Shown here one piece after another: positions 3,072 through 48,726 of a DNA stretch of 64,000 nucleotides. The stretch's first letter is position 1; each line of letters begins with the position of its first letter. This DNA is from Actinomycetes bacterium (GTDB lineage Bacteria; Actinomycetota; Thermoleophilia; BMS3ABIN01), in contig JAJYIM010000002.1 of the NCBI GenBank assembly GCA_021790115.1, positions 14,804-78,803 of the forward strand, in the 5' to 3' direction. The position numbers were made by a program, and so were the translations under genes. The notes under the pieces are model-generated. The model did not search any database, was not told the DNA's origin, and was given only the letters and a program-made list of their open reading frames with translations.

Positions 3072-3177
3072 AGCGGACGCTGGACGCTGGACTCTGGATA
3101 AAAGCAAAACCCAAAAAACAAAATTAACTTGACAAATGGGAAATAATCGTTAAAATGTTTTTTGAGCTTTGAGCTTT
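3072..3177 (+). promoter_or_regulatory. Intergenic repeat/promoter cassette: (GGACGCT)2-GGACTCT-GGAT heptamer array, AAAACCCAAAAAACAAAA tract, TTGACA(3129-3134)-N16-TAAAAT(3151-3156), then a (GAGCTTT)2 repeat
   Basis: Read directly from the sequence. Same architecture as seven other copies in the window. Confidence 0.55.
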
Positions 3178-4140
3178 ATGCCCAACAGAATCTGTGACAT
3201 ATTTGATATCGACCATCCCATCCTCCAGGGAGGGATGACCTGGGTCAGCGACGCCTGCCTGGCCGCGGCGGTTTCCAACGGAGGCGGCCTCGGCATTATC
3301 GGCGCCGGCGCCATGCCGGCCCGGTTGCTTGGCGAAGAGATCAGGAAGGCGCGCCAGTTAACAGAGCGCCCTTTTGGGGTTAACCTGATCATGATTAACC
3401 CGGAGTTTGAGCAGCAGCTGGAGGTGGTCCTGGCCGAGGCGCCGCCGGCGGTGACGCTGGGCGCAGTGAAAAACACGTCCGTGATCCCCCTGATGAAGGA
3501 GAAGGGGATCAAGGTGGCGCCCGTGGTGGCCGCCGTGGCGATTGCCCGCCGCTGCGAGGAGCAGGGGGCGGACGCCATCATTGCCGAGGGCTCGGAGTCC
3601 GGCGGGCACATTGGCGACACGACCACCATGGTGCTCGTGCCGCTGGTTTCCAGGGCAGTCGGCGTGCCGGTGATCGCCGCCGGCGGCATCGCCGGCGGCG
3701 CGGGAGTGGTGGCCGCCTTTGCGCTGGGGGCTGAGGGAGTTCAGCTTGGCACCCGCTTTGTCTGCGCAGAAGAATGCCCGGTGCACGAGGCTGTGAAGCA
3801 AAAATTCATGAAATCAGGCGACAGGGCAACGGTAGTGACTGCCCGCTGCGTCGGATATCCGGTGCGAACAATAAAAAACAAGCTATCCGGCTTGTATGAT
3901 CAGTGGGAAAGGAAGTACATGGCCGGCGAGTGCACTGCCATGGAAATTGAGAACCTGGGCCTGGGCAAGCTGCGCGAGGCCATGCGGGAAGGGAACGTCA
4001 GGGACGGCTCGATGATGGCCGGGCAGAGCGTCGCCCTGGTGGACAGGGTGCAGCCGGCGGCAGAGATCATTGCCGAGATCGTGGCCGAGGCGGAAGCCGC
4101 CGCAGCCCGCCTGGGCTCGCAAATGGCGCTCAGCCGGTGA
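3178..4140 (+). CDS. fabK: Enoyl-ACP reductase II FabK (FMN-dependent, nitronate monooxygenase family)
   Basis: DHPILQGGMTWVSDACLAAAVSNGGGLGIIGAG matches the FabK N-terminus. ATG at 3178; the ORF-track start at 3169 is a TTG. Confidence 0.85.
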   Translation: MPNRICDIFDIDHPILQGGMTWVSDACLAAAVSNGGGLGIIGAGAMPARLLGEEIRKARQLTERPFGVNLIMINPEFEQQLEVVLAEAPPAVTLGAVKNTSVIPLMKEKGIKVAPVVAAVAIARRCEEQGADAIIAEGSESGGHIGDTTTMVLVPLVSRAVGVPVIAAGGIAGGAGVVAAFALGAEGVQLGTRFVCAEECPVHEAVKQKFMKSGDRATVVTARCVGYPVRTIKNKLSGLYDQWERKYMAGECTAMEIENLGLGKLREAMREGNVRDGSMMAGQSVALVDRVQPAAEIIAEIVAEAEAAAARLGSQMALSR

Positions 4141-4146
4141 GGTGCA

Positions 4147-5061
4147 GTGGGTAAGCTGGCGCTGGTCTTTCCCGGCCAGGGTTCTCAGAAGCCGGGCATG
4201 GGGGCCGATCTGGCCGTTGAGTTTGAGGCTGCCGCAGATATCTACCGCAGGGCCGGCGAGACAGTCGGCTGGCATGTGGCCGATGTTTCTTTTAATGGAC
4301 CCGAGGCAAAGCTGAACCAGACCGGCTTTGCCCAGGTGGCGCTCTATGTCAACAGCATGGCGGTGATGGGGGTTTTAAAACAGCGGGGCGTTATGGGGGA
4401 TGTCGTCAGCGGGCACAGCCTGGGCGAGTACAGCGCCCTGGCGGCGGCAGGAACCATCAGCTTTGAGGAAGGGCTTGAACTTGTTGAGGCGCGGGGAATG
4501 GCAATGGCCGACGCCGCCCGGGAGCGGCCCGGACTGATGGCTGCCATCCTTGGTCTTGATGATGTGGCCGTCGAGGCCATTTGCGCTGAAGCGGGCGATG
4601 TTTGGCCGGTAAATTACAACTGCCCCGGGCAGGTAGTGGTTAGCGGCCTGGCGCAGTCGGTGCGAAGGGCAATGTCGAAGGCCCTGGATGCCGGCGCCCG
4701 CAAAACCGTGGAGTTGCCGGTAAGCGGCGCTTTCCATAGCCCCTATATGCGCAACGCGGCCGGCGAGATGAAGGAGCGCCTGGCGGGAGCTCTGTTTAAG
4801 GATCCGCAACCGCCTTTTTTTTCTTCAATTAGCTGCCGTTACGAGACGGCCGCCGGTCTTGCCGGGCTGCTCGTAAGCCAGATTGTCTCCCCGGTTCGCT
4901 GGCGCCAGGCTGTAGAGGCGATGATCGCGGACGGCGTGGACAGGTTTCTGGAGGTTGGAAACGGGAAAGTCTTAACTGGCCTCATCAGGAGGATCAACCG
5001 CGATGTCGCCGCCGCCAGCGTTTCCGATCCAGCCGGCCTTGAAAACGCAAACAGGATTTAA
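4147..5061 (+). CDS. fabD: Malonyl-CoA:ACP transacylase FabD
   Basis: ALVFPGQGSQ and GHSLGEYSALAAAG motifs. Confidence 0.9.
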   Translation: MGKLALVFPGQGSQKPGMGADLAVEFEAAADIYRRAGETVGWHVADVSFNGPEAKLNQTGFAQVALYVNSMAVMGVLKQRGVMGDVVSGHSLGEYSALAAAGTISFEEGLELVEARGMAMADAARERPGLMAAILGLDDVAVEAICAEAGDVWPVNYNCPGQVVVSGLAQSVRRAMSKALDAGARKTVELPVSGAFHSPYMRNAAGEMKERLAGALFKDPQPPFFSSISCRYETAAGLAGLLVSQIVSPVRWRQAVEAMIADGVDRFLEVGNGKVLTGLIRRINRDVAAASVSDPAGLENANRI

Positions 5062-8174: not shown

Positions 8175-9042
8175 GATAGCCAAGATTACCCACCGGCTGC
8201 GGGATCTGGGCTTAAGCCGGCAAGTGGACAAGGCCGTGTGGGACAAGGTTGAACTGGCCCGCCATGCCCAGCGGCCGTACACGCTGGATTATATCCATCA
8301 CATGTTTCCCGGGTTCATCGAGCTAAGCGGTGACCGCTGTTTCGCCGATGATGCGGCAATCGTGGCCGGCCTGGCCGCCTACATGGGCCGCACGATCATG
8401 GTTATTGGTCATCAAAAAGGCCGCGATCTTGCCGCCCGGACGCGGCGCAACTTTGGCATGCCGCGCCCGGAGGGCTACCGCAAGGCGCAGCGGCTGATGA
8501 TCCTGGCCGACAAGTTCGGCATTCCGGTTTTTACCATGATTGATACTCCGGGAGCTTTTCCAGGCGTGGCTGCCGAGGAGCGCGGCCAGGCGGGCGCGAT
8601 TTCGGCGGCGCTGCTTTGCATGGCCCGCCTGGACGTGCCTACCGTCGCCGTCATCATCGGCGAAGGCGGCAGCGGCGGCGCCCTGGCGCTGGGCCTGGCC
8701 GACCGGGTGCTGATGCTGGAAAATTCGATTTATTCGGTGATCTCGCCGGAGTCATGCGCCGCCATTCTCTGGAAGGATTCCAGCGAGGCGCATCTGGCTG
8801 CGCAGACACTCAGGCTGACTTCCTCCCAGGTGGCGGACCTGGGGGCTATCGACGCAGTGCTGCCGGAGCCGCGCGGCGGAGCGCACCGCGATCATGCCGG
8901 CGCCGCTCATATTGTCAAGGAAGTGCTTGAGGACAACCTGCGTGAGCTGGAGGCAATCCGCCCGCTGGACAGGAAGCGCGAACGTTTCGCAAAGTTCCGG
9001 CGCATGGGCGTCTGGAAAGAGAACGGGCTGACGTTATTTTAA
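8044..9042 (+). CDS. accA: Acetyl-CoA carboxylase carboxyltransferase alpha subunit AccA (start uncertain; may be the TTG near 8119 after GAAGAGGG)
   Basis: ARHAQRPYTLDYI and GEGGSGGALA motifs. Overlaps the accD 3' end. Confidence 0.85.
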   Translation: MSPVPLSPFGRKKRAVQDEEGRLQGRLAELKRLPTLPGVHLKDEIAKITHRLRDLGLSRQVDKAVWDKVELARHAQRPYTLDYIHHMFPGFIELSGDRCFADDAAIVAGLAAYMGRTIMVIGHQKGRDLAARTRRNFGMPRPEGYRKAQRLMILADKFGIPVFTMIDTPGAFPGVAAEERGQAGAISAALLCMARLDVPTVAVIIGEGGSGGALALGLADRVLMLENSIYSVISPESCAAILWKDSSEAHLAAQTLRLTSSQVADLGAIDAVLPEPRGGAHRDHAGAAHIVKEVLEDNLRELEAIRPLDRKRERFAKFRRMGVWKENGLTLF

Positions 9043-9065
9043 GGGCTGGCTGCTTAGGGCTTATC

Positions 9066-9112
9066 CCAGTAGGCGTATTCTACTGCGGCCGGCTGCAAAG
9101 GCTTTGGCATAG
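9066..9112. repeat. Partial copy of the MITE-like palindromic element (CTGCGGCCGGCTGCAAAGGC ... ATAGATTCT)
   Basis: About 40 nt are near-identical to 48738-48770, plus a terminal AGATTCT. It lies between convergent accA and ORF 9117-9695. Confidence 0.5.
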
Positions 9113-9116
9113 ATTC

Positions 9117-9695
9117 TTAGGCCGCTCGGCCGTCGCCCTCATCTTTCTCACTGAACTGGCGGTAAGCAAAATAGCCGGCGATTTCTCCCGCAACCAGCGT
9201 ATCGCCGAACCTGTTTATCGCCATCACGGCGCTTCGCAGCTCTTCCGCCTGCTTGGCGGAGTTCGGGGACACGTGATTAAAAATCGTTTCCTCAAGAGCT
9301 GTGCGGAAGCTGCTGGCATGGGTGACCAGGTCAGGGAGGCAAAAACCGACCGCCGTGCGGCGATAGGCGTCGTCCTGGGCCGCCTGGCGGGCGCGGTGCA
9401 GGATCTGGGAGTACTGGTACTCTTCGGAGCCCATTAGCTCCACAGCCAGCCCCAGGAAAGAGACGGCAACGGCGCGGCCCATAGGGGTACCCAGCATCTG
9501 CTCAAAGTCTTCGGCAACATGGCCGTGATAGGCCGCGAGCCAGCGTTGCAGTACCTCCTGCTGGTTTTCTCTAAGCGCACTGGCAAAAGTGAGCGAACTC
9601 ATGGGAAACAATCCGAAACTAGTTTGGCTGCATTTGCTCCCTAGAGTGTTTATCGGAGCCAAAAACGGGGTGCTTAATGAAAGGGTGCGGCGCAA
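9117..9695 (-). CDS. Hypothetical protein (no confident family assignment)
   Basis: 192-aa ORF directly downstream of larB on the minus strand. Codon usage matches its neighbours. Confidence 0.4.
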   Translation of the reverse strand: MRRTLSLSTPFLAPINTLGSKCSQTSFGLFPMSSLTFASALRENQQEVLQRWLAAYHGHVAEDFEQMLGTPMGRAVAVSFLGLAVELMGSEEYQYSQILHRARQAAQDDAYRRTAVGFCLPDLVTHASSFRTALEETIFNHVSPNSAKQAEELRSAVMAINRFGDTLVAGEIAGYFAYRQFSEKDEGDGRAA

Positions 9696-9719
9696 ACCCG
9701 CGCGGCATTGGTTAGACTC

Positions 9720-10499
9720 TTACCCGGTCGGCGGAGCCGCCTGGTTTGCTATCAGCGCCGCCGTGGCGCCGGCGCCGACGCCATTGTCGATATTGACAAC
9801 GGCAAGCCCGGGACAGCAGCTTTGCAGCATGGCCAGCAAGGCGGTCACACCTCCGCCTCCCAGGCCGTAGCCAGACGAAGTGGGGAGGCCGATCACCGGC
9901 ACCGGCACCAGGCCGGCAACCACGGAAGGCAGCGCTCCTTCCATCCCTGCGGCCACCACCAATGCGGCTGCGCCTGCCTCCATCATCTCACTCAGCGGCC
10001 CGGCCAGCCGGTGCAGCCCGGCCACGCCCACGTCGTATGCCGTTACTGCCTGGCAACCCATTTCTGCCGCGACAATGCGCGCCTGCTCGCACGCCGGCAC
10101 ATCGGCTGTGCCGGCCGAGAGGACACCGATCTTGCCTCCGCCAGCCCGCGGCTTAAGCCCCTTTTTTGCCAGCACAATGGTTTTGGCCTCTGCGCTCTGG
10201 GCGGCGATCATCCCGGCGAACCGGGACTCAAGCGCGGCCTGCTGCTCCCCGCTTAGGGAAGCGACGATTGAGCGGCCGCCGGCTTCAACAAGCGTGCTGC
10301 AGATTTCAAGCAATTGCCCAACCGTTTTACCGGGAGCAAAGACAATCTCCGGCACCCCCTTGCGCTGAAGACGCCCGGTGTCGAGCCTGGCGAACTCGCC
10401 AACCGCCAAAATTCCTGCCAGCGGCAGCCGCGCCTGCGCTTCGTCAATGCTGATCTTGCCTTCGGCAAGCTGCCTCAGGATCTCACGCTGGGTTTCCAC
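9720..10499 (-). CDS. larB: LarB-like PurE-family carboxylase (nickel-pincer cofactor biosynthesis / AIR carboxylase-like)
   Basis: GVPEIVFAPGKT, IGVLSAGTADVP, and a Gly-rich PurE-like fold (VAAGMEGALPSVVAG). Confidence 0.7.
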   Translation of the reverse strand: METQREILRQLAEGKISIDEAQARLPLAGILAVGEFARLDTGRLQRKGVPEIVFAPGKTVGQLLEICSTLVEAGGRSIVASLSGEQQAALESRFAGMIAAQSAEAKTIVLAKKGLKPRAGGGKIGVLSAGTADVPACEQARIVAAEMGCQAVTAYDVGVAGLHRLAGPLSEMMEAGAAALVVAAGMEGALPSVVAGLVPVPVIGLPTSSGYGLGGGGVTALLAMLQSCCPGLAVVNIDNGVGAGATAALIANQAAPPTG

Positions 10500-11337
10500 T
10501 CTTTCCTTCCAAAATCCTGGCGGCGTTGCCGCCCATAATCGCGCCGGTTTCGGCTGCGCTTAAGCCGGCGGCTTCGATCTCGCGGCGGCACCTCAGCGGC
10601 GATAACAGCGGGAAGTCGCTGCCAAAAAGGATCTTCTCCGGCCCCAGGATAGAGACGGCCACCTTGAAGACCTTTGCGTCGTAAAGGAAAGGGCTGGCCG
10701 CTGAGTCGTAATAGGCTCCAGCAAGATCGCTGCGCACCTCGGGCATAAGCTCGTAGAACGGCAGGCCGCCGCCCCAGTGGGCAAACACAAGCTTCAGCCC
10801 GGGAAAGGTGCGGGCAAGCGCGTAACCCTTTTCAGGTGTGGTCCCGCTTTTGCCCTTGTAGCCATGCCCGACCGGCTCGCTTAAGTGAATTAGCATGGGC
10901 ACGCCGTGCTGCTCGGCAAGTTTGGCCAAGGGTCTCACGGCGCCGGTGTCGGCTAGGTCGAAACCCTGACTGTCTGGAACCAGCTCGCCGATGCCCTTTA
11001 ATCCCAGCCCCAGGCAGCGCTCGATCTCGGCTGCCGCCCCCGGAGACAGCGGCGGCGCGTTGGCGAAGCCGGCGATGCGGCCAGGCCAGCGCCCGGCAGC
11101 CTCGGCCAGGTACGAATTGCTCTTAACGCAAAGGTCAAGGCTGCGGAAGGGAAAGCCCAAGACTACCGCCCGGTCAACGCCCGAGCGGTCCATTTCTTCT
11201 ATTAATTCTTTCGCACTTGCCATGCGCGCTGCCGGATCGCGGTAAAGCTTGGCAAACCAGTCTTCTTCAGGCATAAGACGGGCGCGGTCGGCAATCATCT
11301 CCGGCGGAAAAATATGAGTATGGAAATCGATGATCAT
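10483..11337 (-). CDS. Amidohydrolase-2 family metal-dependent hydrolase/decarboxylase (TIM barrel)
   Basis: MIIDFHTHIFP N-terminus, HWGGG, FGSDFP. Overlaps the larB start by 17 nt. Confidence 0.7.
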   Translation of the reverse strand: MIIDFHTHIFPPEMIADRARLMPEEDWFAKLYRDPAARMASAKELIEEMDRSGVDRAVVLGFPFRSLDLCVKSNSYLAEAAGRWPGRIAGFANAPPLSPGAAAEIERCLGLGLKGIGELVPDSQGFDLADTGAVRPLAKLAEQHGVPMLIHLSEPVGHGYKGKSGTTPEKGYALARTFPGLKLVFAHWGGGLPFYELMPEVRSDLAGAYYDSAASPFLYDAKVFKVAVSILGPEKILFGSDFPLLSPLRCRREIEAAGLSAAETGAIMGGNAARILEGKSGNPA

Positions 11338-11473
11338 GTGGCCAGTATACTATTGGAGTTGGGAGAGCAAGAAAGGGGCGGTGGCGACGGCGACCCAACT
11401 GCTCTCAGCGCAGGGCGGCCCCGCCCGGTCCATGATTTTATCCAAAGTCTAACATCCAAAATTCAACGTCCGG

Positions 11474-12436
11474 TTATACCGGCGCCTTGAAATCCAGGCA
11501 CTCGCTGCCCTCGTAGATCTTGACTGCTTCATCAACCGGGTAATCGGCCAGAGTGATTGCCGAGATGGCGTCGCACATCCGCACCGCCTCCTCCAGGGGT
11601 TTTTGATGGATGTTTCTGCCGGTGGCGTTGCCGATGGCGCCGCTGATGTGAATCTGGTCGTGCAGCCGCTGCAGGAAGCTGCGCGCATCGGTGGACGAGC
11701 CGCCTGCCGCCACCACGTGCGTGCGCCCGGCCGCCACCACCGCTTCCTTGAAGATCTCGCTTGACTCCTGGCCTTCCGCCTTTGGATAGTTGACCTTGAC
11801 GAAGTCAGAGCCGAGCGTCAGGGCGACGCCGGTGGCGCCTGCGATCAGGTGCGGGTCTTTCTCGTCGGCCACGTTTTGGCCACGCGGGTAGATCCAGAGG
11901 ACGCTCAGCAGGCCGTGCCGGTGGGCGTCGTTGACAAGACGTGCTGCTTGTGACAGCATCTGCGGCTCGTAGGTGCTGCCCAGATAGATGGTGTAGCCGA
12001 CGGCCCTGATGTTGAGGCCCGATTCTTCCTTGAGCCTGGCCACCCGGTCGACGTCGAGCCACAGGTTGCTAAACGGGTCCATGGTGGCTGTTTTTACCAG
12101 ATTGGTCTTGGAATTGAGCTTGACAAGATAGTCGATCTCGCAGTAATCGTTGCCGTAGCGGGCAATCATACCGATCTGGGTCGCGTAGACGCCAATCGTT
12201 CCCTGGCGGGCGATCAGGAACATATGCTCCGGATCGGCGTCGTCTTCCGGTATCTGCCCCAGCTCGTACTTGCCAACGAAATCCTTGTTCAGGTGCTCCA
12301 CCTTCTGATCGCCGGCAAACAGCATCAGCCGGCCGGTGCCCTTGGTCATGGCGGTGAAATTCTCCACGTACTGCTCCCTCATTGCAGCAGGCACGTCGAG
12401 GGGTATTTGCACGTCCAGTCCGTCAACCATTCCCAA
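11474..12436 (-). CDS. Class I fructose-bisphosphate aldolase, DhnA/FbaB-type
   Basis: GDQKVEH..., LVKLN..., TIYLGS, and the YPRGQNV segment align in my reading with the E. coli FbaB/DhnA signature segments. Confidence 0.65.
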   Translation of the reverse strand: MGMVDGLDVQIPLDVPAAMREQYVENFTAMTKGTGRLMLFAGDQKVEHLNKDFVGKYELGQIPEDDADPEHMFLIARQGTIGVYATQIGMIARYGNDYCEIDYLVKLNSKTNLVKTATMDPFSNLWLDVDRVARLKEESGLNIRAVGYTIYLGSTYEPQMLSQAARLVNDAHRHGLLSVLWIYPRGQNVADEKDPHLIAGATGVALTLGSDFVKVNYPKAEGQESSEIFKEAVVAAGRTHVVAAGGSSTDARSFLQRLHDQIHISGAIGNATGRNIHQKPLEEAVRMCDAISAITLADYPVDEAVKIYEGSECLDFKAPV

Positions 12437-12619
12437 ACTCCTTTCACCAACTAAAGTTTAATGACAGGGAACAACCTGTTGAAACAGGCTTTAAGGATAT
12501 TTTATCCGGCGGCCAAAATCCAATATGCCCGCGCTTTTTGTATAATATGCGCGTTCACTTATGGCTAAACTTGCTGCCGCCACAGCCGCGGGCATGGCTG
12601 CGCGGTCAAGCGAAAGTCT

Positions 12620-13873
12620 TTGATATTGGAGTCAGTAACCGAAAAAGCAAGGGAAGCGCGCCGGGCCCTGCCCCAAGTGGCCGCACTGCCGGCCGAGGTC
12701 AAGAACGCGGCGCTTGTGGCCATGGCGGACGCCCTGGAGGAAGGGCTGCCCGAGATTGAGGAGGCCAACGCCAAAGACCTCGGCGCGGGAAAGGCCAAGG
12801 GGCTCACCAGCGCCATGCTGGACCGCCTGCTGCTGGACAGGCCGCGAGTCGTCCTGATGGCCAGCAACCTGCGCGACATCGCCGGCATGGCCGATCCGGT
12901 GGGAGAGGTAATTAAATCATGGACCGCGCCCAACGGCATGAAGGTGTCCCGGGTGCGAAGCCCGATCGGCGTCATTGCCATCATCTATGAAGCCCGGCCG
13001 AATGTGACTACCGAGACCGCGGCCTTAAGCATCAAGGCGGGAAACTGCATCATTCTGCGGGGCGGCTCGGAAGCGATCCATTCCAACCGCGTGCTGGCCG
13101 GGCTGATGGCCGGCGCCGGCGCTAGGAACGGCATGCCGCCGGGGGCCATCCAGTTTGTCGACACCACCGACCGGGCTGCGGTCGGCGAGTTGTTGGGATT
13201 GGCGGGCCTGATTGACCTCGTGATCGCCCGCGGCAGCCAGCGGCTGATCGAGGCGGTCACGGAGAAATCGAAGATACCGGTGATGAAGCACTACCGCGGC
13301 CTCTGCCACATTTACGTGGAGGCGGCCGCAAACCCGGGGATGGCCGTCAGGATTATCACCAACGCCAAGGCCAACCGGCCCAGCACCTGCAATTCGGTGG
13401 AGACCGTGCTGGTCGACGAAGCCGTTTCCGCCAAAGTGCTGCCGCCGCTGGCCGAGAGCCTGGCCGGCGCCGGTGTGGAGGTCCGCGCGGACGAGCGGGC
13501 CCGGCGGGTGATCCCGGCCTGGGCGGCCGCCACCGAGGCGGACTGGGATGCTGAGTACCTAGACCTGATCCTTTCGCTCAAGGTTGTGGCCGGCTTCGAT
13601 GAGGCTGTCGTCCACATCCGCAGGCACCATTCCGGTCTTGCCGACGCCATTGTCACCGAGGACAGCCGGGCGGCCGAGCGTTTTCTAGCCAGCATTGACA
13701 GCGCCGCCACCTACTGGAACGCTTCCACCCGCCTGACAGACGGCCTCCCCTTCGGCATCGGCCCTGCCAGCGGCATCAATACCGACCGGGTCTACCCCCG
13801 CGGCCCGATGGGGATCGAGGAGATGACCGGCTCCCGTTACGTTATCCGGGGCAGCGGCCAGATCAGGGAGTGA
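12620..13873 (+). CDS. proA: Gamma-glutamyl phosphate reductase ProA
   Basis: Aldehyde dehydrogenase fold with the ProA-specific N-terminus and a catalytic Cys region (NASTRLTDG). Confidence 0.9.
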   Translation: MILESVTEKAREARRALPQVAALPAEVKNAALVAMADALEEGLPEIEEANAKDLGAGKAKGLTSAMLDRLLLDRPRVVLMASNLRDIAGMADPVGEVIKSWTAPNGMKVSRVRSPIGVIAIIYEARPNVTTETAALSIKAGNCIILRGGSEAIHSNRVLAGLMAGAGARNGMPPGAIQFVDTTDRAAVGELLGLAGLIDLVIARGSQRLIEAVTEKSKIPVMKHYRGLCHIYVEAAANPGMAVRIITNAKANRPSTCNSVETVLVDEAVSAKVLPPLAESLAGAGVEVRADERARRVIPAWAAATEADWDAEYLDLILSLKVVAGFDEAVVHIRRHHSGLADAIVTEDSRAAERFLASIDSAATYWNASTRLTDGLPFGIGPASGINTDRVYPRGPMGIEEMTGSRYVIRGSGQIRE

Positions 13874-13895
13874 GGCAGGCTCCCAGAAGCCAGGC

Positions 13896-13960
13896 GCAGG
13901 CATCTCCGGATCGCCGCGCCGGGCGCGGCGATCCGGAGATGCCTGCGCCTGCAACTTTTT
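13896..13960 (+). terminator. Perfect 25-bp palindrome (GGCGCAGGCATCTCCGGATCGCCGC ... revcomp) followed by TGCAACTTTTTG
   Basis: Read directly. Sits 23 nt after the proA stop. Candidate intrinsic terminator with an unusually long stem. Confidence 0.5.
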
Positions 13961-17497: not shown

Positions 17498-18559
17498 CTA
17501 GGGCACAACATCAATGCGGCCCGTATCATCCTCCGCTTCGATGACGCCAATGCGGGCGGCCGTGATTGCGCCCGCCTGCCTCAGCGCCTGCTCAAGTCTG
17601 TCTGCCTTACCCGGCGGGCATGAGATCAAAAGTCCGCCCGAGGTCTGGGCGTCGGCCAAAAGCAGCCTTTCCGCCTCTGTGATGCCGGCGTCGAAATTAA
17701 CGAAGCGGCGCGCGTATTCAAGGTTCTTCTTGCTGCCGCCCGGTGCGGCGTCCAGGTCAGCATCAATCAAGTCCCGGGCGGCCTGGATTACCGGCACCGC
17801 CCGGGCGTGAATACGGGCGCCCATGCCGCTGGCCCGCGTCATCGCGGCCAGGTGCCCCAGCAGGCCGTAGCCGGTGACGTCTGTGCAGGCGCTGATGCCC
17901 ACAGCCACCATTGCTTCCGCGACCTCCTTGTTTAAGGCGCTCATTACTTCTACCGCCCTGCGGATGGCGCCGCCGCCGGCGGTGCCACGTTTGATGCCCG
18001 TCGTGACAATGCCAATCCCCAGGGGCTTGGTTAAAAAAAGGACATCCCCTGCCGCGGCGGTTGAGTTGTGGACGACCTTGGCAGGATCGATGACGCCGGT
18101 GACAGCAAGGCCGTACTTGGGCTCGCGGTCATCCACCGTGTGGCCGCCGATGATGGCAACGCCTGCCTCGCGCGCCTTGTCGGCGCCGCCCTTCATTATC
18201 CGGGAGAGAATCTCCAGCGGCAGCTGCTTGGTATGAAAGCCGGCAATGTTGAGCGCAAACAGCGGCCTGGCGCCCATGGCGTAGATATCGCTGAGAGCGT
18301 TGGCCACGGCAATGGCTCCGTACTGGTAGGGGTCATCGACCACCGGCGTGAAATAATCGACGGTCTGGATGATTGCCAGATTATCGGAAATCTGGTAAAC
18401 AGCACAATCGTCACCGGTGTTGAAACCCACCAGCACGCGCGGGTCTGTAATTGGCGGCAGCTCTGTGAGAATGGCCTGCAGGTCCGACGGACTTATCTTG
18501 CAGGCTCAGCCGGCCCCATGCGCCAGGCGGGTGAGGCGGATCTCTTCATCTGCGTTCAT
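17498..18559 (-). CDS. selD: Selenide, water dikinase (selenophosphate synthetase) SelD, selenocysteine-containing. In-frame TGA (plus-strand tca 18506-18508) is read as Sec.
   Basis: The ORF track starts at MLVGFNTGDDCAVY, which is mid-SelD. Extending upstream gives MNADEEIRLTRLAHGAG-U-ACKISPSDLQAILTELPPITDPRVLVGFNTGDDC, which is the SelD G-x-G-(C/U)-x-x-K active-site motif. ATG at 18559. Confidence 0.8.
18474..18505 (-). ncRNA. Putative bacterial SECIS hairpin immediately 3' of the selD UGA (mRNA GCCUGCAAGAUAAGUCCGUCGGACCUGCAGGC)
   Basis: 7-bp stem GCCUGCA/UGCAGGC enclosing an inner GUCCG/CGGAC stem. Starts 1 nt after the UGA. Confidence 0.5.
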
Positions 18560-18616
18560 TGCGCTTTCTCCCTTAGAGTTTTATATCTAAAAGGCTCTTG
18601 ACCAGATTGCAAGATT

Positions 18617-23325: not shown

Positions 23326-24639
<1,314 letters not shown>

Positions 24640-24660: not shown

Positions 24661-25481
24661 TTAGGGAATGGATCCGACACCCATGGCAATTGCATAAAAT
24701 ATCGGGATGAAATCGGTCGAAACAATGCTGCCTTCCTGGAGGTGATAACCAATGAGGGCAAAATCCGCATAACCGGCGGCAATGCATCCAGCTGCTGCCA
24801 TGTACAACCAGTATGAACTACCGTAGCCTTTGGCTGACAAGCCGACCGGTTTCTCTAAATCATGCGGCTTTGGGAAATAATGCCGGGCGACAAAAAGCGT
24901 CGTCATGGATAGAATTGCCGATACCAAAAGCAGGCTGTAGCCCAACCTGTAGCTACCATTCATAAGCAATATCAAAGACATGACCAATGGGCCCAGGGTT
25001 GCTCCCGCTTGGTCGAGCGCTTCGTATAGACCGAAGGCCCAGCCATGTCCAATATGGCCGCCGCTGTAAGACAACATGGCTTCAACCGGCGGCTTGCGCA
25101 TCGCCCGCCCGGCCCGTTCGGCAATCACCAAAGCTGCTGCCATCGGCAAGTTGCCGGCCAACGCCAGAGCCGGCACGGCGATAAGATTAATTGTGTAGCC
25201 TACAATTATGGTCAGCCAGTACCGGCCCGTCCGGTCAGCAAGAAAACCAAACATAGAACGCAGTCCATAGCCGGCGAGTTCACCAAAACGGCGGTAAAAC
25301 CTACGACGGCGGCCGATGCTCCCAGCGTGGCCAGAAACTGGCCGTTGATACTGTGGGCGGCTTCATGGGTAAAATCAGCAAACAGACTGGTGATACCGAT
25401 AACCACCACAAATCTGAAAGCCGTTTTAGCTAACAGACGGGTGTGACCCTCCACCTGGCTGCCTTTCGAGATCAAGCCCAC
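24661..25481 (-). pseudogene. MFS transporter split into two ORFs (25212-25481 N-terminal TM1-2, 24661-25254 remainder) and truncated
   Basis: Two overlapping ORFs in different frames. Their products are consecutive MFS segments. About 290 aa in total, against about 400 expected. Confidence 0.5.
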
Positions 25482-25632: not shown

Positions 25633-27786
25633 TCACCATGACGCTTGAATTAAATACATAACCAACACGGCCGCCAGCGCCGCCAGCGCATAAGTGGCGT
25701 AAGTGTTAAGCCTGCCCTGGTGCAGATATGCCAGCGCGCGTGCAACCCGCAATAACGCCGCCCTGACAGGATGGAAAACCAGTTTGTCTACAGGATGGGT
25801 GCGCTCCTGTTCACGCAGGATGGCGGTGCGGAAATGCCTGGTCACCGTCTCACGGGTATCCTCTACCGTTGTGGGCCTAAAGACAGCGTCGAACACCACC
25901 CGCACGGGATTGGAAAAACCAGTGGCTGTGTAAGTCATTTCCGGCAGCAGTCGCCGTATGCCCCCATCCCAGCGTTTTCGCTGCCTGAGCTTGCGTCTGC
26001 GTGTCAGCCAAAGGCGAATGACAACATAGGTCCCCCCCAGCAGCACGATCAGAGCAACTGCCATGTAAGAAGTGGACATGGCAAACACCACCGGGTTTTC
26101 CTCACCTCCACGGTGAAGCACTACCAGTCCCCGGCCGGGCAGAAAGCTCTGCCCTATCTGGGCGCCAAGATCGTGGAAGTCCTTTACAAACGTGGAAGGC
26201 AAGGCGCTGTGCGCCGGGTCCGAGGCGAAAAAGGGCGGCACCAGCGCGTCAGATGCGCTCGCTCCGGCCAAGGGGGCAACCGCCGGACTGAGTGTCGGAA
26301 TCACATATGTCGGCAACAGGCCAAATCCGAGGCAGAGCGCGGCAAGAATGAACATCGGCGCAAGCGTGCCGGCCCTGGCTTCCAAGAGTTGCCGGTTTTC
26401 ATTAAGGCGACGCATTCCCAGAAACCCCATGGCAAAAACCCTGACAAAACAGGTGACCGCCAGCGCCGCCGTCAGCGCCAGGCCGGCGCCGGCAAGGGCA
26501 AACACCAGTTTCACGGCTGCCGATGACAGTTCCGTCGAGCGCAGCATCGTCTGCAGTGTCAGCCATTCACTGACAAACCCGTTGAAGGGCGGCAGGGCCG
26601 AGATGGAGAGCGTACCGACCAGGAACGCAAGCGTGGCAAGCGGCATCCATTTGATCAATCCACCAAGATTGTTCAGATCGCGAGTGCCGGTTTGTTTTTC
26701 CACCTCGCCAACGCCGAAAAACAGCAGAGTCTTAAAAAACGAATGATTGATTAAATGATATAGCGCTGCCACAAACGCAATTGCCGCCGGGATTGGATGA
26801 TTCGTGGCAACGAAGACCATGCCGGCGCCAAATCCTGCAACAACGATGCCAACATTTTCAATCGAGCTGTGTGCCAGGATAACCTTAAGATCATTATCTG
26901 TGGTTGCATAAAGGATACCCACCAGCGCTGTAAGCGTTCCAATGACAAGCGCCACCAAGCCGGGCGCGGCATCAGTAGCCGGCATCAAGCCGGCATTTAC
27001 GCGCAGAATTCCGTAAAGGCCAAGATTTAAAGTAGCGCCGGCCAGCACAGGTACAAATGCCCGCGAGGCTGCTGTATAGGCGCGCGGCAGCCAGAAATTC
27101 ACAGGGACCAGCCCTGCTTTGACACCAAAGCCGAAAAATGTCAGCAAGAAGACCGCCCATCTGAGTCCGGAGCCCAAGCCGGGTGAGGTCCCCTGAATCG
27201 CGGAAAAATCAAGCGAGCCTGCGCCGGCCGCAAGTAAAAGAAAACCAAGCACTGCCGCGAGCGTGCCGGCCTCACCCATGGCCAGCAAGAGGAAACCAGA
27301 GTTTGCCTTGCCATCTTCCTGCTGCCGGGAAGCTACAATGAGCAGATAAGAGAAAATTGACATCGCTTCCCAGGCGAGCAGAAACGACAAAGCATCGCCG
27401 GCGATGAAAACGAGACCGATGGCGGCATAGAGCGCCAGCAGCAGCACTGTAAAAAGGCTACCGTTGGAAATTGCTCCTCGTTCCAGATGAGAGCTGGCAA
27501 AGATCGAGGCGGGGAAAAGCACCAGGCCCGTAACCAGCAAAAACACCGCCGATAGCTGGTCGATACCAATGGTCATCCTTCCAAGGTTGGGAAGCTCCCA
27601 CAGCGGCTGGAGGAAATTCTCACCGGATATGAGCGTACTGCTCCCTGCCAGCATCAATGCAATTGCGGCCAGGCAGCCTGTCACGGCAAGTATGCTGCCC
27701 TGACGCGTCCGCGGCATGGCCACCGCCAGCAGCGCCCCGGCGCCGCAGAGAGACAGGAAAGCAATAATGAAGGCCTGCGTCATCAT
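25633..27786 (-). CDS. Complex-I NuoL / HyfB / MrpA-like antiporter subunit of an Ehr/group-4-hydrogenase-like membrane complex
   Basis: 717 aa, polytopic, with NuoL/ND5-family conserved segments. Its ATG overlaps the upstream stop (ATGA). Confidence 0.7.
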   Translation of the reverse strand: MMTQAFIIAFLSLCGAGALLAVAMPRTRQGSILAVTGCLAAIALMLAGSSTLISGENFLQPLWELPNLGRMTIGIDQLSAVFLLVTGLVLFPASIFASSHLERGAISNGSLFTVLLLALYAAIGLVFIAGDALSFLLAWEAMSIFSYLLIVASRQQEDGKANSGFLLLAMGEAGTLAAVLGFLLLAAGAGSLDFSAIQGTSPGLGSGLRWAVFLLTFFGFGVKAGLVPVNFWLPRAYTAASRAFVPVLAGATLNLGLYGILRVNAGLMPATDAAPGLVALVIGTLTALVGILYATTDNDLKVILAHSSIENVGIVVAGFGAGMVFVATNHPIPAAIAFVAALYHLINHSFFKTLLFFGVGEVEKQTGTRDLNNLGGLIKWMPLATLAFLVGTLSISALPPFNGFVSEWLTLQTMLRSTELSSAAVKLVFALAGAGLALTAALAVTCFVRVFAMGFLGMRRLNENRQLLEARAGTLAPMFILAALCLGFGLLPTYVIPTLSPAVAPLAGASASDALVPPFFASDPAHSALPSTFVKDFHDLGAQIGQSFLPGRGLVVLHRGGEENPVVFAMSTSYMAVALIVLLGGTYVVIRLWLTRRRKLRQRKRWDGGIRRLLPEMTYTATGFSNPVRVVFDAVFRPTTVEDTRETVTRHFRTAILREQERTHPVDKLVFHPVRAALLRVARALAYLHQGRLNTYATYALAALAAVLVMYLIQASW

Positions 27787-28538
27787 TCGCCGGTCGCGTT
27801 GGCTTGGGAGGACCCGGGCTGCAGATCAACCGGAGGTTTGCGCCCGGCAGCCACCAGCAGGCCATGCAGGATCGCCAGCGGCGGCGGCGGGTTACCCGGC
27901 ACCTCCACGTCAACCGGCAATATGTCGGTTACGCCCTCGGAGCAGGTAAAACTTTCCGCAAACACCCCGCCAGAAAGCGCGCAGACGCCGGCAGCCACTA
28001 CCCGCTTGGGTGTCGGTATGGCGTTGTAAATTTTTTGCAGCGCCAGGCTCATATGATCGGTCCCCGGACCCACCACCAGCAGCACATCTGCATGACGCGG
28101 TGTAGGTGTGATAAAAAATCCCAGCCTGTGGATGTTGTAATACGGGCTGCTGAGTTGCCTGACTTCGTTAAGGCATGAGCCACAATCACCGGCATCCACG
28201 ACGCAGATATTGATGGATTTCCTGAAAGCCGGAAGAAGATTCTTTTTCTGGTTGCTTTCAACTCCCCATTCGTAAGTTGAATCCCATCTTGCCGGCTGTT
28301 CGACCCCGCGAACACAGCGGTAGCAATGGATGCAGCGGTCCACATCCACATTCACCCGGCCGTTGATGATAGTGAATACTTGTGTGGGGCAGATATCCAC
28401 CAGCGCCCGGGCTGCGCCGGTATCCATCTGGCTGCTGACCGGCAGTCCGGGTGTGACGCCAGCGGCGGTTTCCGCATTGCGTGGGTACGCACTGGTTTTA
28501 ATTCCCGTGCGAATGCCTTTGATGACCCAGGGGCTCAT
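27783..28538 (-). CDS. Fused ferredoxin-like / NuoB-like small subunit, with degenerate cluster ligands
   Basis: N-terminal DICP...CIHCYRC, which is one [4Fe-4S] motif. The NuoB-like part has DCGSC and GVCALSGG, but the PGCPP position reads PGNPP. Confidence 0.6.
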   Translation of the reverse strand: MSPWVIKGIRTGIKTSAYPRNAETAAGVTPGLPVSSQMDTGAARALVDICPTQVFTIINGRVNVDVDRCIHCYRCVRGVEQPARWDSTYEWGVESNQKKNLLPAFRKSINICVVDAGDCGSCLNEVRQLSSPYYNIHRLGFFITPTPRHADVLLVVGPGTDHMSLALQKIYNAIPTPKRVVAAGVCALSGGVFAESFTCSEGVTDILPVDVEVPGNPPPPLAILHGLLVAAGRKPPVDLQPGSSQANATGE

Positions 28539-28569
28539 TTATTCGCCCTTTCTCTTTTCATTTTTTTCT

Positions 28570-30147
28570 TCACCTGTCGTTCTCGGCGACCGACAGGTCG
28601 AAGGTGGCGAGCATTATGGGAAAATCCTGAAATGCAAAATTTTCGACAGCGACGTGAAACCCGTGCCAGTTCGCAAATGAAGGCGGGGCGACGTGATAGC
28701 GGGTGACAAATCCGCGCTCATCGAGGCGCACCCAGTGAAACGCTGCTCCCCTGGGCGCTTCAACCCACCCCAGAGCTGCTCCCTCGCGAGGTTTGAACGA
28801 TTCCAGGACGCCACCTCCCGGCATTGCGGCAACAGTCTGTTCCATGATATGTACCGACTGCCTGCATTCGGAAAAAAGCACCCGCAGCCGCGCGTAGCCG
28901 TCGCCCTCCTGCTCGCTCGGCACCTCGAACCGAAATTGCGAGTAGCCAGAATATGGCTGTTCGCGCCGGAGGTCGTGAGCTACCGCCGAGGCACGCGCGA
29001 CCGGACCCAGCAGGCCGTAAGCAGCGGCGACCTGCTGCTGTACGTAGCCGACCTCCTCGAGGCGGTCAAGGAAACTGCTCGAAACACGGAGCTCCGTTTC
29101 AAGATTATCGAGTTGTTTCAGGACCGCTTGCGATTTGTTCAGCGCTTGGCGGCAGTCGTTGTCAGGCAGGTCCAAAAGCAATCCACCCGGGGCCAGCATG
29201 CCGAACAGGTAGCGATGGCCGGTAAGCTCTCCGGAGATACGTAACAGGTCTTCCTCGAAAATTCCCGCTTCGCTGGCGGCGACGGCGAGTGCCGTGGACT
29301 CGCAGATTTCCTGAATCGCGCCGGCATGCTGACGCAAACGTTCCAGCTCCGCCAGAAACACCCGCAGGCCTGCCGCCCGCGGCGGGATGTCAGCGGCGCA
29401 CGCCGTTTCGACAGCTTGGCAAAAGGCCAGTCCGTGGGCAAAAGCGGTTGTGGCCGCAAACCGCTCCGCTAGCAGCAGGACCTCGTCGGCCGGCTTGCCT
29501 TCGGCAATTTTTTCTATGGCGCGCCATTTGTAAAACAGGCGGGGCATGAAACGAATCACATCTTCCCCCACGGTTTCAAGCAGAAAGTGAACCGACTCGG
29601 TGACGCCCGAATACTTTGGACCCACCGGCATCACAAACGCGCCCGATTCCTGAACTATGCGGCGCGGCCGCCAGTCGGCTGCGGGTTTGCGATAGCGGAT
29701 AGCCATTTGTGGATCAAAATGATGCCGCATTGGGTCGACGTTTTCCTGCCAGGCGTCATCGTGCAGGATAAAATCGCCGAGACGGGGATGGCCTTCAAAG
29801 GTGAGTCCGAACATATCCTCGGCCTCGCGCTCGTGCCAGTCGGCGGCATGGACAAATTTGACTATGCTCGGGAAAGTCTCCTCAGAACAGAGGGCGCTCG
29901 CCAGGACATGGACCCAGCCGCTGCCGGCCCCGCCATAAAAAATGTAGCGCAACCGCCACGCTGCCGGCATTTCCTCAACGATCAAATTAGCAAAATTAAA
30001 GTCCTTATCAATGAAAAGCCAGCCGCATAACTCCGCCAGCGACGCACGGGCGCAGGTGATTTCGCACAAGTCGCTTCTGTCATCGTAACGGCACTTGGCA
30101 TGCCCCGCCCAGCGCTCTTTAACTTGTTCTTTCAGCCCAAGCTCCAT
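28570..30147 (-). CDS. NuoC-NuoD fusion, large-subunit homolog of group-4 [NiFe] hydrogenases, lacking all four Ni-Fe cysteine ligands (Ehr-type)
   Basis: Where the N-terminal RxCGxCxxxH motif should be, the sequence reads ERFAATTAFAH. Where the C-terminal DPCxxCxxR motif should be, it reads FDLSVAENDR. The rest is clearly NuoD/HycE-like (GPKYSGV..., EAPRGAAFHWV, PPSFANW). Confidence 0.65.
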   Translation of the reverse strand: MELGLKEQVKERWAGHAKCRYDDRSDLCEITCARASLAELCGWLFIDKDFNFANLIVEEMPAAWRLRYIFYGGAGSGWVHVLASALCSEETFPSIVKFVHAADWHEREAEDMFGLTFEGHPRLGDFILHDDAWQENVDPMRHHFDPQMAIRYRKPAADWRPRRIVQESGAFVMPVGPKYSGVTESVHFLLETVGEDVIRFMPRLFYKWRAIEKIAEGKPADEVLLLAERFAATTAFAHGLAFCQAVETACAADIPPRAAGLRVFLAELERLRQHAGAIQEICESTALAVAASEAGIFEEDLLRISGELTGHRYLFGMLAPGGLLLDLPDNDCRQALNKSQAVLKQLDNLETELRVSSSFLDRLEEVGYVQQQVAAAYGLLGPVARASAVAHDLRREQPYSGYSQFRFEVPSEQEGDGYARLRVLFSECRQSVHIMEQTVAAMPGGGVLESFKPREGAALGWVEAPRGAAFHWVRLDERGFVTRYHVAPPSFANWHGFHVAVENFAFQDFPIMLATFDLSVAENDR

Positions 30148-30170
30148 GTCTGCCTTATCTTGTCAAAGCA

Positions 30171-31649
30171 CTAGCGGCCTGAGTCAGCAGGTTCTGCAGC
30201 GGTTGCGGGATGTACATACAGTCCCAGCACCAGCACCGGAGCCGCAGACAGTATCATTGCAAGCCGGCAGGTGAACGGCAGGCGAAATTTGTGCTCAACT
30301 GTGTAATCATAAGGCGTATTTTGCATTACGCCATCATCTGGCAGACCAAATACCATCTGGTTGATTTTCAACATGACCCCAAAAAAGGCAATCAGGATGA
30401 AAAGAGACAGAAGGCCCATCGCCACATAATCAGTCTGCGACAGGCCGGCCCTGAGAATGGAAAGTTCACTTAAAAAAACTGCTAGTGGCGGCGCGCCGGT
30501 GATGGCCAGCCCGCCAAAAACCAAAGCGGCGCCAGTGAAGGGAGACCGGCGGATAAGTCCTCGCACAGAGGCGATTTTGCGTGTTCTCAGATTCAGCAAA
30601 ACGGCGCCCGCGGCAAAGAAACAAAATGATTTTGTTACGCTGTGGCTGATGATTTGTTGCAGGGCGGCGTAATCAGCGCCCGCCGCGCCTATCCCGACGG
30701 CCGTTAGTATTATGCCCATGTGCTCGACCGTGGAGAAAGCAAACATACGCTTGTAATCGCCGACTTGCAGCAGCAGGAATGCAGCCGTTCCGGCAGATAT
30801 CAGGCCCAGCACGATCGCCCAGGTAGTGGCGTGCGCGCCCGGCGTGGCCTGCATGATTGGAAACAGCCGCAAAATGACGTAAAGGATGGCCGAAGTTTCA
30901 ATGCCGGAAAGCAGGGCGCATACCGGCGAGGGCGCCTGGCTGTGCGCATCTGGCAGCCAGGTGTGCATAGGCACCAGCCCGACCTTTGTTCCAAGGCCGA
31001 TCAGGATCAGCAAAAACGCAACCTGCAGCAGTGCCGGTGGCATCCCGGGCCCGGCCTGGGCCAGCCCGCTCCAGGTAAAGGCGGCATCGCTGCCTGATGC
31101 CTGCAGGGCCGAGAACAGCAGCAGGAAACCGAAAAGCGCCATGCCCGCGCCCATAAGCGAGAGCACCACATATTTCCATGCTGCCTCCAACGCCTCGCGA
31201 GTATCCTCAAAGGAGACAATGAGTGCAGAAGTTAGCGTTGTCAGCGCTACCGAGATCCATACCAGTGTCGGCTCAGCGAGGATGGGAATGGCGAGCATGG
31301 AAAAAACAAACAAATTGAAATTGATGTAGTAAATTCGTATTTTACGGGGCGGGAAATTTCCATGCGCCATATAGCCCACGGAGTAAATTGCCGCTGTGGT
31401 ACCGATGAAGGCGACCAGCAGCAGGATGAGTCCGCTCAAGCCGTCAACGGAAACCCATTTCAGCAAGCCGATTCCGAGGGCCGATGTAACTATCTTGCCT
31501 GTTGAGACAAAGAGCGCCACCCGGACGGCCAGAACCAGAATTACGAGTGAAGAAACAACAGTGATGACGCCAGCCCAATATTGCTTGAGCGGAAGCAGAA
31601 TGAGCGCTGATGCAATTAATGGCATACCCAAAATAAAAGCGATGCTCAT
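30171..31649 (-). CDS. NuoN/NuoM / HyfF-like proton-pumping antiporter subunit
   Basis: 492 aa, about 14 TM, complex-I antiporter family motifs. Confidence 0.7.
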   Translation of the reverse strand: MSIAFILGMPLIASALILLPLKQYWAGVITVVSSLVILVLAVRVALFVSTGKIVTSALGIGLLKWVSVDGLSGLILLLVAFIGTTAAIYSVGYMAHGNFPPRKIRIYYINFNLFVFSMLAIPILAEPTLVWISVALTTLTSALIVSFEDTREALEAAWKYVVLSLMGAGMALFGFLLLFSALQASGSDAAFTWSGLAQAGPGMPPALLQVAFLLILIGLGTKVGLVPMHTWLPDAHSQAPSPVCALLSGIETSAILYVILRLFPIMQATPGAHATTWAIVLGLISAGTAAFLLLQVGDYKRMFAFSTVEHMGIILTAVGIGAAGADYAALQQIISHSVTKSFCFFAAGAVLLNLRTRKIASVRGLIRRSPFTGAALVFGGLAITGAPPLAVFLSELSILRAGLSQTDYVAMGLLSLFILIAFFGVMLKINQMVFGLPDDGVMQNTPYDYTVEHKFRLPFTCRLAMILSAAPVLVLGLYVHPATAAEPADSGR

Positions 31650-32347
31650 CCGGCCTCCTCGCTTCCCGCAGGCACAGATACGTTTTCCTTAAGATTGGCC
31701 AGCTCTCCCACCGCGGTCGTGCCAACATGCCTGTGGACTGCGCGCGTTAGCACGCCCATGATAAAAACAACGATCAGACCATCGGTGGCAATCGCCAGCT
31801 CCACCAGGAGCGGCAATTTCCGTGAGATGGCAATGCCGCTTAAAAAGGCGCCGTTTTCCATGGCCAAGATGCCAATCAGCAGCGGCACAGCTTCCCGCCG
31901 CACCGTGATTGTAAATGCTCCGAGCAGGAGGCCGGCTATGCCAATCGGCACGTTGGGACCTCGAAATTCAGGCGCTACCGCATTCAGCAACGGCTGCCCC
32001 AAAAAATAAGCCAGAATCACCAGCGCCAGTGCAATCAGGAGTGCCGTTGGGATATTCAGCGCCTGGTTAACTTCCCGGCGCGTGTAAACTTCCTCTGGAG
32101 CGGTCTTTTTCAGGAGCCAGGGAAGGATCAGCGGCTTGATGATAACGTTCACCAGGGCGACGCCGTAAAGGTGTTCCGATTGATACCTGAGGCCTAGAAA
32201 CAGGGCAGACAGGGCCAGCAAAATTGACTGGAAGATAAACAGGTTGAGGACGCCGCGGGTCTGCCGCATGGCTACAATTCCAAAGGCGGTCAGCAGAAAC
32301 AACCCGGTGACAAGCGCGTTTAAATTGTCAAGAAGCTGATCTGTCAC
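31646..32347 (-). CDS. HyfE-like small membrane subunit
   Basis: 233 aa with about 6 TM, placed where hyfE sits in hyf/ehr operons. Confidence 0.5.
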   Translation of the reverse strand: MTDQLLDNLNALVTGLFLLTAFGIVAMRQTRGVLNLFIFQSILLALSALFLGLRYQSEHLYGVALVNVIIKPLILPWLLKKTAPEEVYTRREVNQALNIPTALLIALALVILAYFLGQPLLNAVAPEFRGPNVPIGIAGLLLGAFTITVRREAVPLLIGILAMENGAFLSGIAISRKLPLLVELAIATDGLIVVFIMGVLTRAVHRHVGTTAVGELANLKENVSVPAGSEEAG

Positions 32348-32360
32348 AACTGTTTTCTTT

Positions 32361-33311: not shown

Positions 33312-33435
33312 GAAGTTCCCAATACTCGAAGCCGATTATGACAATTCCCGGGAGATGCCCGCCGCAGGCCCGGGGAAGGCGGTCATGACCGCAGAAAACG
33401 AAATTGAATGACGGCAACGGCGTCCGCAATTCCAT

Positions 33436-35286: not shown

Positions 35287-35407
35287 AGGGCGCTTCAGGC
35301 GAGCTTCATCGCCTCTTAAAATATGCTCTATTCAATAGGAAATATAACAATTTGACTGTTTCTGGGCAAGGCTTTTTTATTATCGCGGTCATAAACGAGT
35401 GATTATT

Positions 35408-40823: not shown

Positions 40824-41042
40824 CTATTGCTGGCCGCGGATCAGCTTTAGAACGGCCAGGCGCTCACGCAGGATCCGCTCGTGATCCTGTTCCCATCTGA
40901 CCAGTTGTTCGAACAGCGACCGCGTTTCCGGATCTTCAGCTGATTCGGCCCCACGGCGGTATTTCTCCGCGGCCATTTTCTCGTTCTCAATTGCTTCCTC
41001 GATTAGCTTGATCATATTCAAGGCTGCTCCTTGAGTCGGCAT
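40824..41042 (-). CDS. Small ferritin/rubrerythrin-like helical protein
   Basis: EEAIENEKMAAEKYRRGAE...EQLVRWEQDHERIL helical pair pattern. Its ATG overlaps the upstream stop (TAATG). Confidence 0.45.
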   Translation of the reverse strand: MPTQGAALNMIKLIEEAIENEKMAAEKYRRGAESAEDPETRSLFEQLVRWEQDHERILRERLAVLKLIRGQQ

Positions 41043-42685: not shown

Positions 42686-42734
42686 CCACCCATCTGCTCG
42701 GAGATGTCTGTAAAATAATGGCTGGATACAGATA

Positions 42735-46604: not shown

Positions 46605-46673
46605 TAAAACCTCCTGATTCTGGCATCGGCCCAAAGCCGTCCATCAAATACGAATTTTATCAGTTTTACAAAA

Positions 46674-48722: not shown

Positions 48723-48726
48723 TAAG

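Follow-up and report, generated by a model that had tools for sequence, protein, structure and literature searches.

A selD gene with an in-frame UGA, probably decoded as selenocysteine, in a Thermoleophilia-like actinobacterium

The 64-kb stretch of DNA analyzed here, which we call the window, contains a minus-strand gene that encodes a SelD protein and is interrupted by an in-frame TGA. We confirmed three features of this locus: the selD reading frame, the single TGA within it, and a hairpin in the RNA that follows the UGA. Based on sequence comparisons, we consider it highly probable (roughly 0.92) that this is a functional selD of the selenocysteine (Sec) type in which the UGA is decoded by means of the 3' hairpin acting as a bacterial SECIS element. 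This would entail binding of SelB, insertion of Sec, and the presence of selA, selB, and selC elsewhere in the genome. A Sec-type SelD had been proposed from the letters of the window, before any database search (the sequence-only reading), and our results support that interpretation.

In the mechanism that we propose, translation would begin at ATG 18559 and the ribosome that reaches the UGA would insert Sec rather than terminate. The hairpin directly 3' of the UGA, which contains GU in its apical loop, is most likely a bacterial SECIS that would recruit SelB-GTP-Sec-tRNA(Sec). The predicted enzyme has 353 residues, carries Sec18 and Lys21 in its N-terminal glycine-rich loop, and would make selenophosphate out of selenide and ATP.

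The selD gene and conservation of its in-frame TGA

The positions given earlier for the start codon, the TGA (tca on the plus strand), and the called open reading frame were exact when we re-read the minus strand (Table 1). The frame from ATG 18559 to the TAG contains only one internal TGA. Its translation reads MNADEEIRLTRLAHGAG up to the TGA and resumes with ACKISPSDLQAILTELPP, the residues next to the TGA being ACKISPSDL, and the remainder of the gene is free of frameshifts and stops. The called ORF had been described as beginning in the middle of SelD. It is shortened at the 5' end as claimed, but the wording was loose in that only the first 41 codons are missing. The same short product of 312 aa is recorded for this contig in a metagenome assembly (ENA ERZ27233565, k141_1368927). 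Inspection of the sequence 5' of GTG 18436 revealed no motif resembling a Shine-Dalgarno sequence.

Table 1. Coordinates of selD and of the hairpin downstream of its UGA in the window.
Feature	Position	Strand	Description	Basis
Full selD coding sequence	17498..18559	minus	353 codons including one UGA (predicted Sec18), then TAG stop at 17500-17498	translation and SelD models
selD start codon ATG	18559-18557	minus		sequence
In-frame TGA	18506..18508	minus	predicted Sec18; aligns with Cys17, the catalytic residue of E. coli SelD	alignment
Shine-Dalgarno-like AAGGGAG	18568..18574	minus	8 nt 5' of ATG 18559	direct reading of the sequence
Called ORF	17498..18436	minus	312 aa, GTG start; lacks the Gly-rich catalytic loop predicted to carry Sec18 and Lys21	table-11 ORF list
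SECIS-like stem-loop	18474..18505	minus	nt +1 to +32 after the UGA	folds, RNAalifold, codon fixation, covariation, consensus
Lower stem	18505-18499 / 18480-18474	minus	GCCUGCA / UGCAGGC	
Upper stem	18492-18489 / 18485-18482	minus	GUCC / GGAC	
Apical loop	18488-18486	minus	GUC	

Profile searches with the extended translation, in which U was written as C, matched TIGR00476 (selD) over residues 8-317 with 373.1 bits (cutoff 125) and NF002098 over residues 4-349 with 354 bits (cutoff 299). Both matches span residue 18 and the alignments therefore run through the TGA. Structure-sequence alignment matched the protein to E. coli SelD (3u0o, E = 2.5e-78), and SelD from Aquifex aeolicus (2yye) aligned as well. 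Residue U18 is opposite Cys17 of 3u0o and K21 is opposite Lys20, and the glycine-rich loop motif G-x-G-(C/U)-x-x-K is present in the window protein as HGAG-U-ACK. Residues D51, D68, N87, D91, and D227 were invariant in an alignment of 24 sequences. We take these to be the ligands of ATP and metal, as in the E. coli SelD structure. The called product is on record with PF00586 and PF02769, which is the two-domain architecture of PurM-like AIRS plus AIRS_C. With matches to curated models above their cutoffs and the U18/Cys17 and K21/Lys20 correspondences, the alignment of the extended N-terminus with SelD spans the TGA, in support of the sequence-only reading. By every membership test that could be applied the gene passes as selD, predicted to encode a selenide, water dikinase (selenophosphate synthetase).

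Coverage of the query by the best 50 database homologs (65-100% identical) was limited to 88-94%, since all of them begin 3' of the TGA. We fetched the DNA of nine close relatives by exact-protein look-up; together with the window these form what we call the clade, and the called SelD products of the relatives are 65-88% identical to that of the window. All 10 clade sequences share the codon position of the TGA, and in every one of the nine relatives it is preceded by the in-frame peptide (E/D)IRLT(R/Q)LAHG(A/S)G. The core of this peptide, IRLT.LAHG.G, was kept across the 10 sequences, while its codons varied: four different codons were used for R, four for A, three each for L and T, and two for H. 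Conservation of the peptide in the face of such codon variation argues that translation runs in one frame from the segment 5' of the TGA into the remainder of the gene, and indicates that this segment is under selection.

More distant genes served as Sec and Cys controls. These came from a genome collection and were at most 58% identical among the matches listed; a scan of a metagenome collection found no close relatives. Outside of the clade, the same codon was TGA in 46 distinct selD genes and TGT or TGC (TGY) in 29 among the matches listed, and inclusion of the clade brought the TGA count to 56 distinct homologous loci. Taxa with TGA-type selD include Chloroflexota, Planctomycetota, Methylomirabilota, Neomoorella, and Desulfovirgula. 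Judged from these codons, the alternation of TGA and TGY is that of a classic Sec/Cys pair. The distribution agrees with the proposal that the TGA sits in the SelD catalytic motif as a Sec codon.

A conserved hairpin 3' of the UGA

The RNA that follows the UGA is predicted to fold into a stem-loop drawn as UGA GCCUGCA.G....GUCC GUC GGAC C UGCAGGC. Our folding reproduced the outer stem of the sequence-only reading, GCCUGCA/UGCAGGC, located directly after the UGA. The inner stem proposed there, GUCCG/CGGAC, is impossible because a loop of one base would remain. Instead, GUCC pairs with GGAC to enclose a GUC triloop, which can equally be drawn as a GUC/GAC stem that encloses a CGUCG loop.

The bacterial SECIS consensus (Zhang and Gladyshev model), as it is summarized in one figure legend, allows 3-9 nt in the apical loop and 4-16 bp in the upper stem (PMC13188914, Fig. 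2 legend). The same summary asks for a G among the first two positions of the loop, usually in the form N1-G-[G/U]-N-N2, where N1 pairs with N2. It further sets the distance from the UGA to the apical loop at 16-37 nt and the minimum free energy at -7.5 kcal/mol or lower (PMC13188914). Compared with the consensus in this summarized form, the window hairpin has a GUC loop of 3 nt and an upper stem of 4 bp, which is the minimum allowed and is extended by the 7-bp lower stem. Its loop reads C-G-U-C-G with the C and G paired and is invariant in all 10 clade sequences. The spacing from the UGA to the loop is 17 nt (GCCUGCAAGAUAAGUCC), such that the loop starts 18 nt after the UGA, and the minimum free energy is -13.8 kcal/mol for the 35 nt starting from the UGA. 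The hairpin is thus located where the summarized consensus would place a bacterial SECIS, as had been proposed, and synonymous-site conservation and covariation agree with this. A search of Rfam returned chance matches only and no match to a bacterial SECIS family.

By themselves, folding energy and fit to the consensus were weak evidence for the hairpin. The folding energy corresponded to z = -2.94, with 2 of 200 dinucleotide shuffles folding equally well. When the segment was recoded synonymously with the codon usage of the window, 10-14% of sequences folded equally well (p ~0.1), and 2-3% did so with uniform codons. A simplified test of the SECIS consensus was passed by approximately 15% of the TGA triplets that the window contains, and by 6% at equal or better energy. 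Because of the recoding result and the proportion of TGA triplets that pass, we did not use energy or consensus fit as our main evidence.

Conservation of the hairpin provided the decisive evidence. The longest run of invariant nucleotides in the gene alignment of the clade was 12 nt long (AGUCCGUCGGAC / AGTCCGTCGGAC) and corresponds to the hairpin core. In a codon alignment of the 10 clade genes, 12% of the codons for invariant amino acids were fixed to a single codon. This fixation was concentrated near the TGA, where 7 of 8 such codons were fixed (GGC, UGC, AAG, AGU, CCG, UCG, GAC) versus 10 of 139 elsewhere (Fisher p = 5.7e-7). The RNAalifold consensus of the 10 sequences had UGCA/UGCA as its lower stem and AGUCC/GGACU as its upper stem, separated by an internal loop of 5 nt, with GUC in the apical loop; over 100 nt of the clade, no further conserved helix was convincing. 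At the foot of the upper stem, the window and the relative nearest to it carry an A-C mismatch, which is absent from the other 8 of the 10 clade sequences, and their lower stem is lengthened to 7 bp instead.

This hairpin, which we call proximal, covaried in the same register across 52 Sec-type sequences among the matches listed. In these sequences, exchanges of G-C and A-U occurred at pair 16-28 and of G-C and C-G at pair 17-27, and U-A, G-C, and A-U replaced one another at pair 18-26. The covarying changes arose in part via amino acid replacements. When the proximal hairpin was considered with a second, distal hairpin described below, 75.6% of cells paired in the 52 sequences versus 25-42% in slid registers. 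The covariation score was 0.328 versus at most 0.133 in slid registers, and none of 500 shuffles reached 0.328. In Cys-type genes, the positions of the proximal hairpin paired in only 14-59% of sequences. The proximal region folded at -2.5 kcal/mol in Cys-type versus -6.9 kcal/mol in Sec-type genes, and the distal region at -2.9 versus -7.8 kcal/mol. Measured by its conservation, the hairpin is clearly more than a product of chance.

The distal hairpin was present 27-43 nt after the UGA in 35 of the 46 Sec-type selD genes outside of the clade among the matches listed; loci L010, L017, L056, and L068, from other phyla, are examples. Its consensus, GGCNCA-GGUNC-UGNGCC, also satisfied the SECIS consensus as summarized above. 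All six pairs showed changes on both sides, indicating strong covariation. The distal hairpin was found in none of the 10 clade sequences, the proximal loop of which is the invariant CGUCG. As judged from these alignments, the proximal hairpin is the only SECIS candidate within the clade. One tentative interpretation, which we regard as possible but somewhat less than even in likelihood, is that Sec-type selD genes across phyla have two covarying hairpins after the UGA and that the Thermoleophilia-like clade lost the distal one and fixed CGUCG on the proximal one. If SelB usually binds the distal hairpin, the SECIS of the clade would have moved approximately 15 nt nearer to the UGA, implying co-adaptation of SelB. 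If the proximal hairpin is instead the universal site for SelB, the widespread distal hairpin would be an accessory element that has yet to be described.

Alternative explanations and the Sec-decoding machinery

We weighed four other explanations for the TGA and the hairpin. The TGA could be a true stop, making the locus a pseudogene or the source of an N-terminally truncated SelD that starts at GTG 18436. This is the default reading with translation table 11, it agrees with the public gene calls, and TGA ordinarily terminates genes in this genome. Yet the short product would lack the catalytic loop with Sec or Cys and Lys, GTG 18436 has no Shine-Dalgarno motif, and the rest of the gene is intact. 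Moreover, the 17 codons 5' of the TGA are conserved as protein and variable as codons across the 10 clade sequences, and 56 distinct genes, which come from many phyla among the matches listed, share the TGA at this codon. A true stop is therefore strongly disfavored, and we regard it as very improbable. That the TGA is an error of sequencing or assembly for TGC or TGT has a negligible probability. Only a single base separates TGA from a Cys codon, but the same TGA recurs in assemblies that are independent of one another in sample and source (NCBI MAGs, ENA, JGI, Logan), which refutes this explanation. It is scarcely more probable than a true stop that the UGA is read through with a different amino acid, either Cys inserted by the Sec machinery at low selenium, Trp by near-cognate suppression, or an amino acid assigned by a changed code. 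Insertion of Cys for Sec at UGA is known in other systems. Nonetheless, the UGA is located exactly at the catalytic Cys/Sec codon and is followed by a conserved hairpin, which is the signature of SelB-dependent decoding and not of leaky suppression. We rejected reassignment of the genetic code since, of 47 other genes in the window, 18 terminate at TGA, and selD is the only confirmed gene there with an internal TGA.

The explanation that retains the most weight next to decoding through the proximal hairpin, though we consider it unlikely, is that the UGA encodes Sec and the stem-loop at +1 to +32 does not bind SelB, with the SECIS being located elsewhere or the conserved nucleotides having another purpose. 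The distal GGUNC-loop hairpin, common in Sec-type selD of other phyla among the matches listed and compatible with the consensus as summarized in the legend, would be in accord with this, as would the permissiveness of the consensus toward TGA triplets of the window. Against it, all 10 clade sequences lack the distal hairpin, RNAalifold over 100 nt yielded no alternative helix, and the proximal hairpin, the loop of which is always CGUCG, is the sole strongly constrained RNA element 3' of the UGA in the clade. Decoding of the UGA as Sec with the proximal hairpin as SECIS is thus the reading that we favor.

Pfam searches of approximately 40 ORFs revealed no selA or selB in the 64-kb window. No tRNA-Sec was found in the window, which has no tRNA of any kind, or in 12 related loci, and the flanks of the nine relatives, covering up to 10 kb per side, contained no selA, selB, or tRNA-Sec. 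Since neither the window nor these flanks contain it, we infer the decoding machinery rather than see it. A Thermoleophilaceae MAG (locus L071) has selA and selB adjoining a Cys-type selD at approximately 10100-13955 on the plus strand. The selA gene matched TIGR00474 with 480 bits. The selB gene is frameshifted, with matches of 168 and 155 bits, which may be an error of long-read assembly. The presence of selA and selB in L071 indicates that the Sec trait exists in the class.

The sequence-only reading also anticipated further selenoproteins. This was not borne out within the window, where a six-frame scan for TGA-interrupted ORFs and Pfam searches of approximately 40 ORFs identified no other selenoprotein. 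Two candidates were rejected. The ORFs at 3169-4140 and 4147-5061 (both plus strand) are in the same frame and split by a TGA and two codons, but encode a FabK-like enzyme of the nitronate monooxygenase family and FabD, respectively, which are ordinary neighbors in a fab cluster. The arrangement of TGA, three codons, and TGA that follows the NuoCD-like gene at 28570-30147 (minus strand) is due to chance. The NuoC/NuoD-like fused large subunit is not a [NiFe] or [NiFeSe] hydrogenase because it ends in ...FDLSVAENDR and has no C-terminal CxxC.

Comparison with known systems and the surroundings of selD

The Sec-type SelD proteins of Aquifex aeolicus (PDB 2yye/2zod) and Haemophilus influenzae belong to the same family as the window protein, with the same two-domain architecture and, as is predicted for the window, a UGA-encoded Sec at the same catalytic position of the N-terminal glycine-rich loop. 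Identity over the aligned region is approximately 50%, as estimated by eye. The window differs from these in its lineage, an uncultured Thermoleophilia-like actinobacterium, and in a local SECIS-like hairpin that is lineage-specific in form. E. coli SelD (3u0o), which is of the Cys type, aligns over residues 4-330 and shares Lys20 and the Asp and Asn residues at 51, 68, 87, 91, and 227. It differs by having Cys17 (TGY) where the window has UGA/Sec, and Cys-type genes have no downstream hairpins. Sec-type selD genes of other phyla, such as those of Methylomirabilota (L017), Chloroflexota (L009), and Neomoorella stamsii (L081), share the UGA codon, the register of the proximal hairpin, and the covarying pairs 16-28, 17-27, and 18-26. 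They differ in that 35 of 46 among the matches listed have the additional distal GGUNC hairpin, which is absent from the window clade.

The SECIS of E. coli fdhF, which is the bacterial SECIS defined by experiment, and the window hairpin are both stem-loops that begin directly behind the UGA within the coding sequence. Both have a small apical loop with G-U at comparable distances. With the U of the UGA numbered 1, we take the loop GU to be G23/U24 in fdhF versus G21/U22 in the window. The two have no other sequence similarity. The window hairpin has no evident bulged U like U17, its loop is CGUCG/GUC instead of GGUC, and it is a candidate binding site for SelB.

SelD and FdhA have been reported as the most widespread bacterial selenoproteins (PMC5029168, PMC9312934). 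This type of enzyme is already well known. The result is an annotation correction that will not surprise a specialist and leaves knowledge of selenoprotein synthesis unchanged. Gene callers are known to truncate selenoprotein genes. The main value of the finding lies in annotation: the public gene calls that we examined for this lineage start past the UGA and omit the catalytic loop, and a miscalled start of this kind could conceal probable use of Sec by uncultured Thermoleophilia-like actinobacteria. The selD gene would mark selenium use in the lineage, and the conserved hairpins provide a clean comparative dataset for SECIS elements of selD.

The window is a housekeeping region with fab genes, a dcw cluster, and the end of gyrA. 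The best named matches of its FtsZ are labeled 'MAG: Thermoleophilia bacterium' and are 86-89% identical, which assigns the window to an uncultured, Thermoleophilia-like lineage of Actinomycetota. In four of the relatives, represented by loci L089, L171, L172, and L174, a gene for a TauE/SafE-family membrane protein (PF01925; approximately 9000-9850 in each) lies between an aldolase_II gene and selD. The protein may have a function connected with selD, as a transporter of selenium or sulfur anions. Neither the window nor loci L084, L086, L087, L173, and L175 have this gene.

Six ORFs of the window had no Pfam match at E <= 1e-5: 41042-42685, 42603-43229, 47909-48880, 46050-46634, and 36290-36850 on the minus strand and 848-1507 on the plus strand. 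The largest of these, 547 aa long, had no match at E <= 1e-3 either.

A fluoride riboswitch (RF01734) was detected at 35261-35322 on the minus strand with 44.5 bits (gathering score 34), directly 5' of an ORF for a dynamin-family GTPase. The genes downstream of it (25633-35286, minus strand) include a seven-gene, complex-I/Mrp-like membrane cluster on the same strand with NuoH-, NuoK-, NuoL/M/N-, NuoCD-, and NuoB-like members. This cargo looks unusual for a fluoride riboswitch. Beyond the cluster are a metallophosphoesterase gene and remnants of genes for an MFS transporter and enolase. The enolase gene (23326-24639, minus strand) is split over at least three frames (24463-24639, 24342-24530, and 23326-24267), and the adjoining MFS transporter gene (24661-25481, minus strand) is also split (25212-25481 and 24661-25254). 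The two split genes are either decaying pseudogenes or the result of assembly frameshifts.
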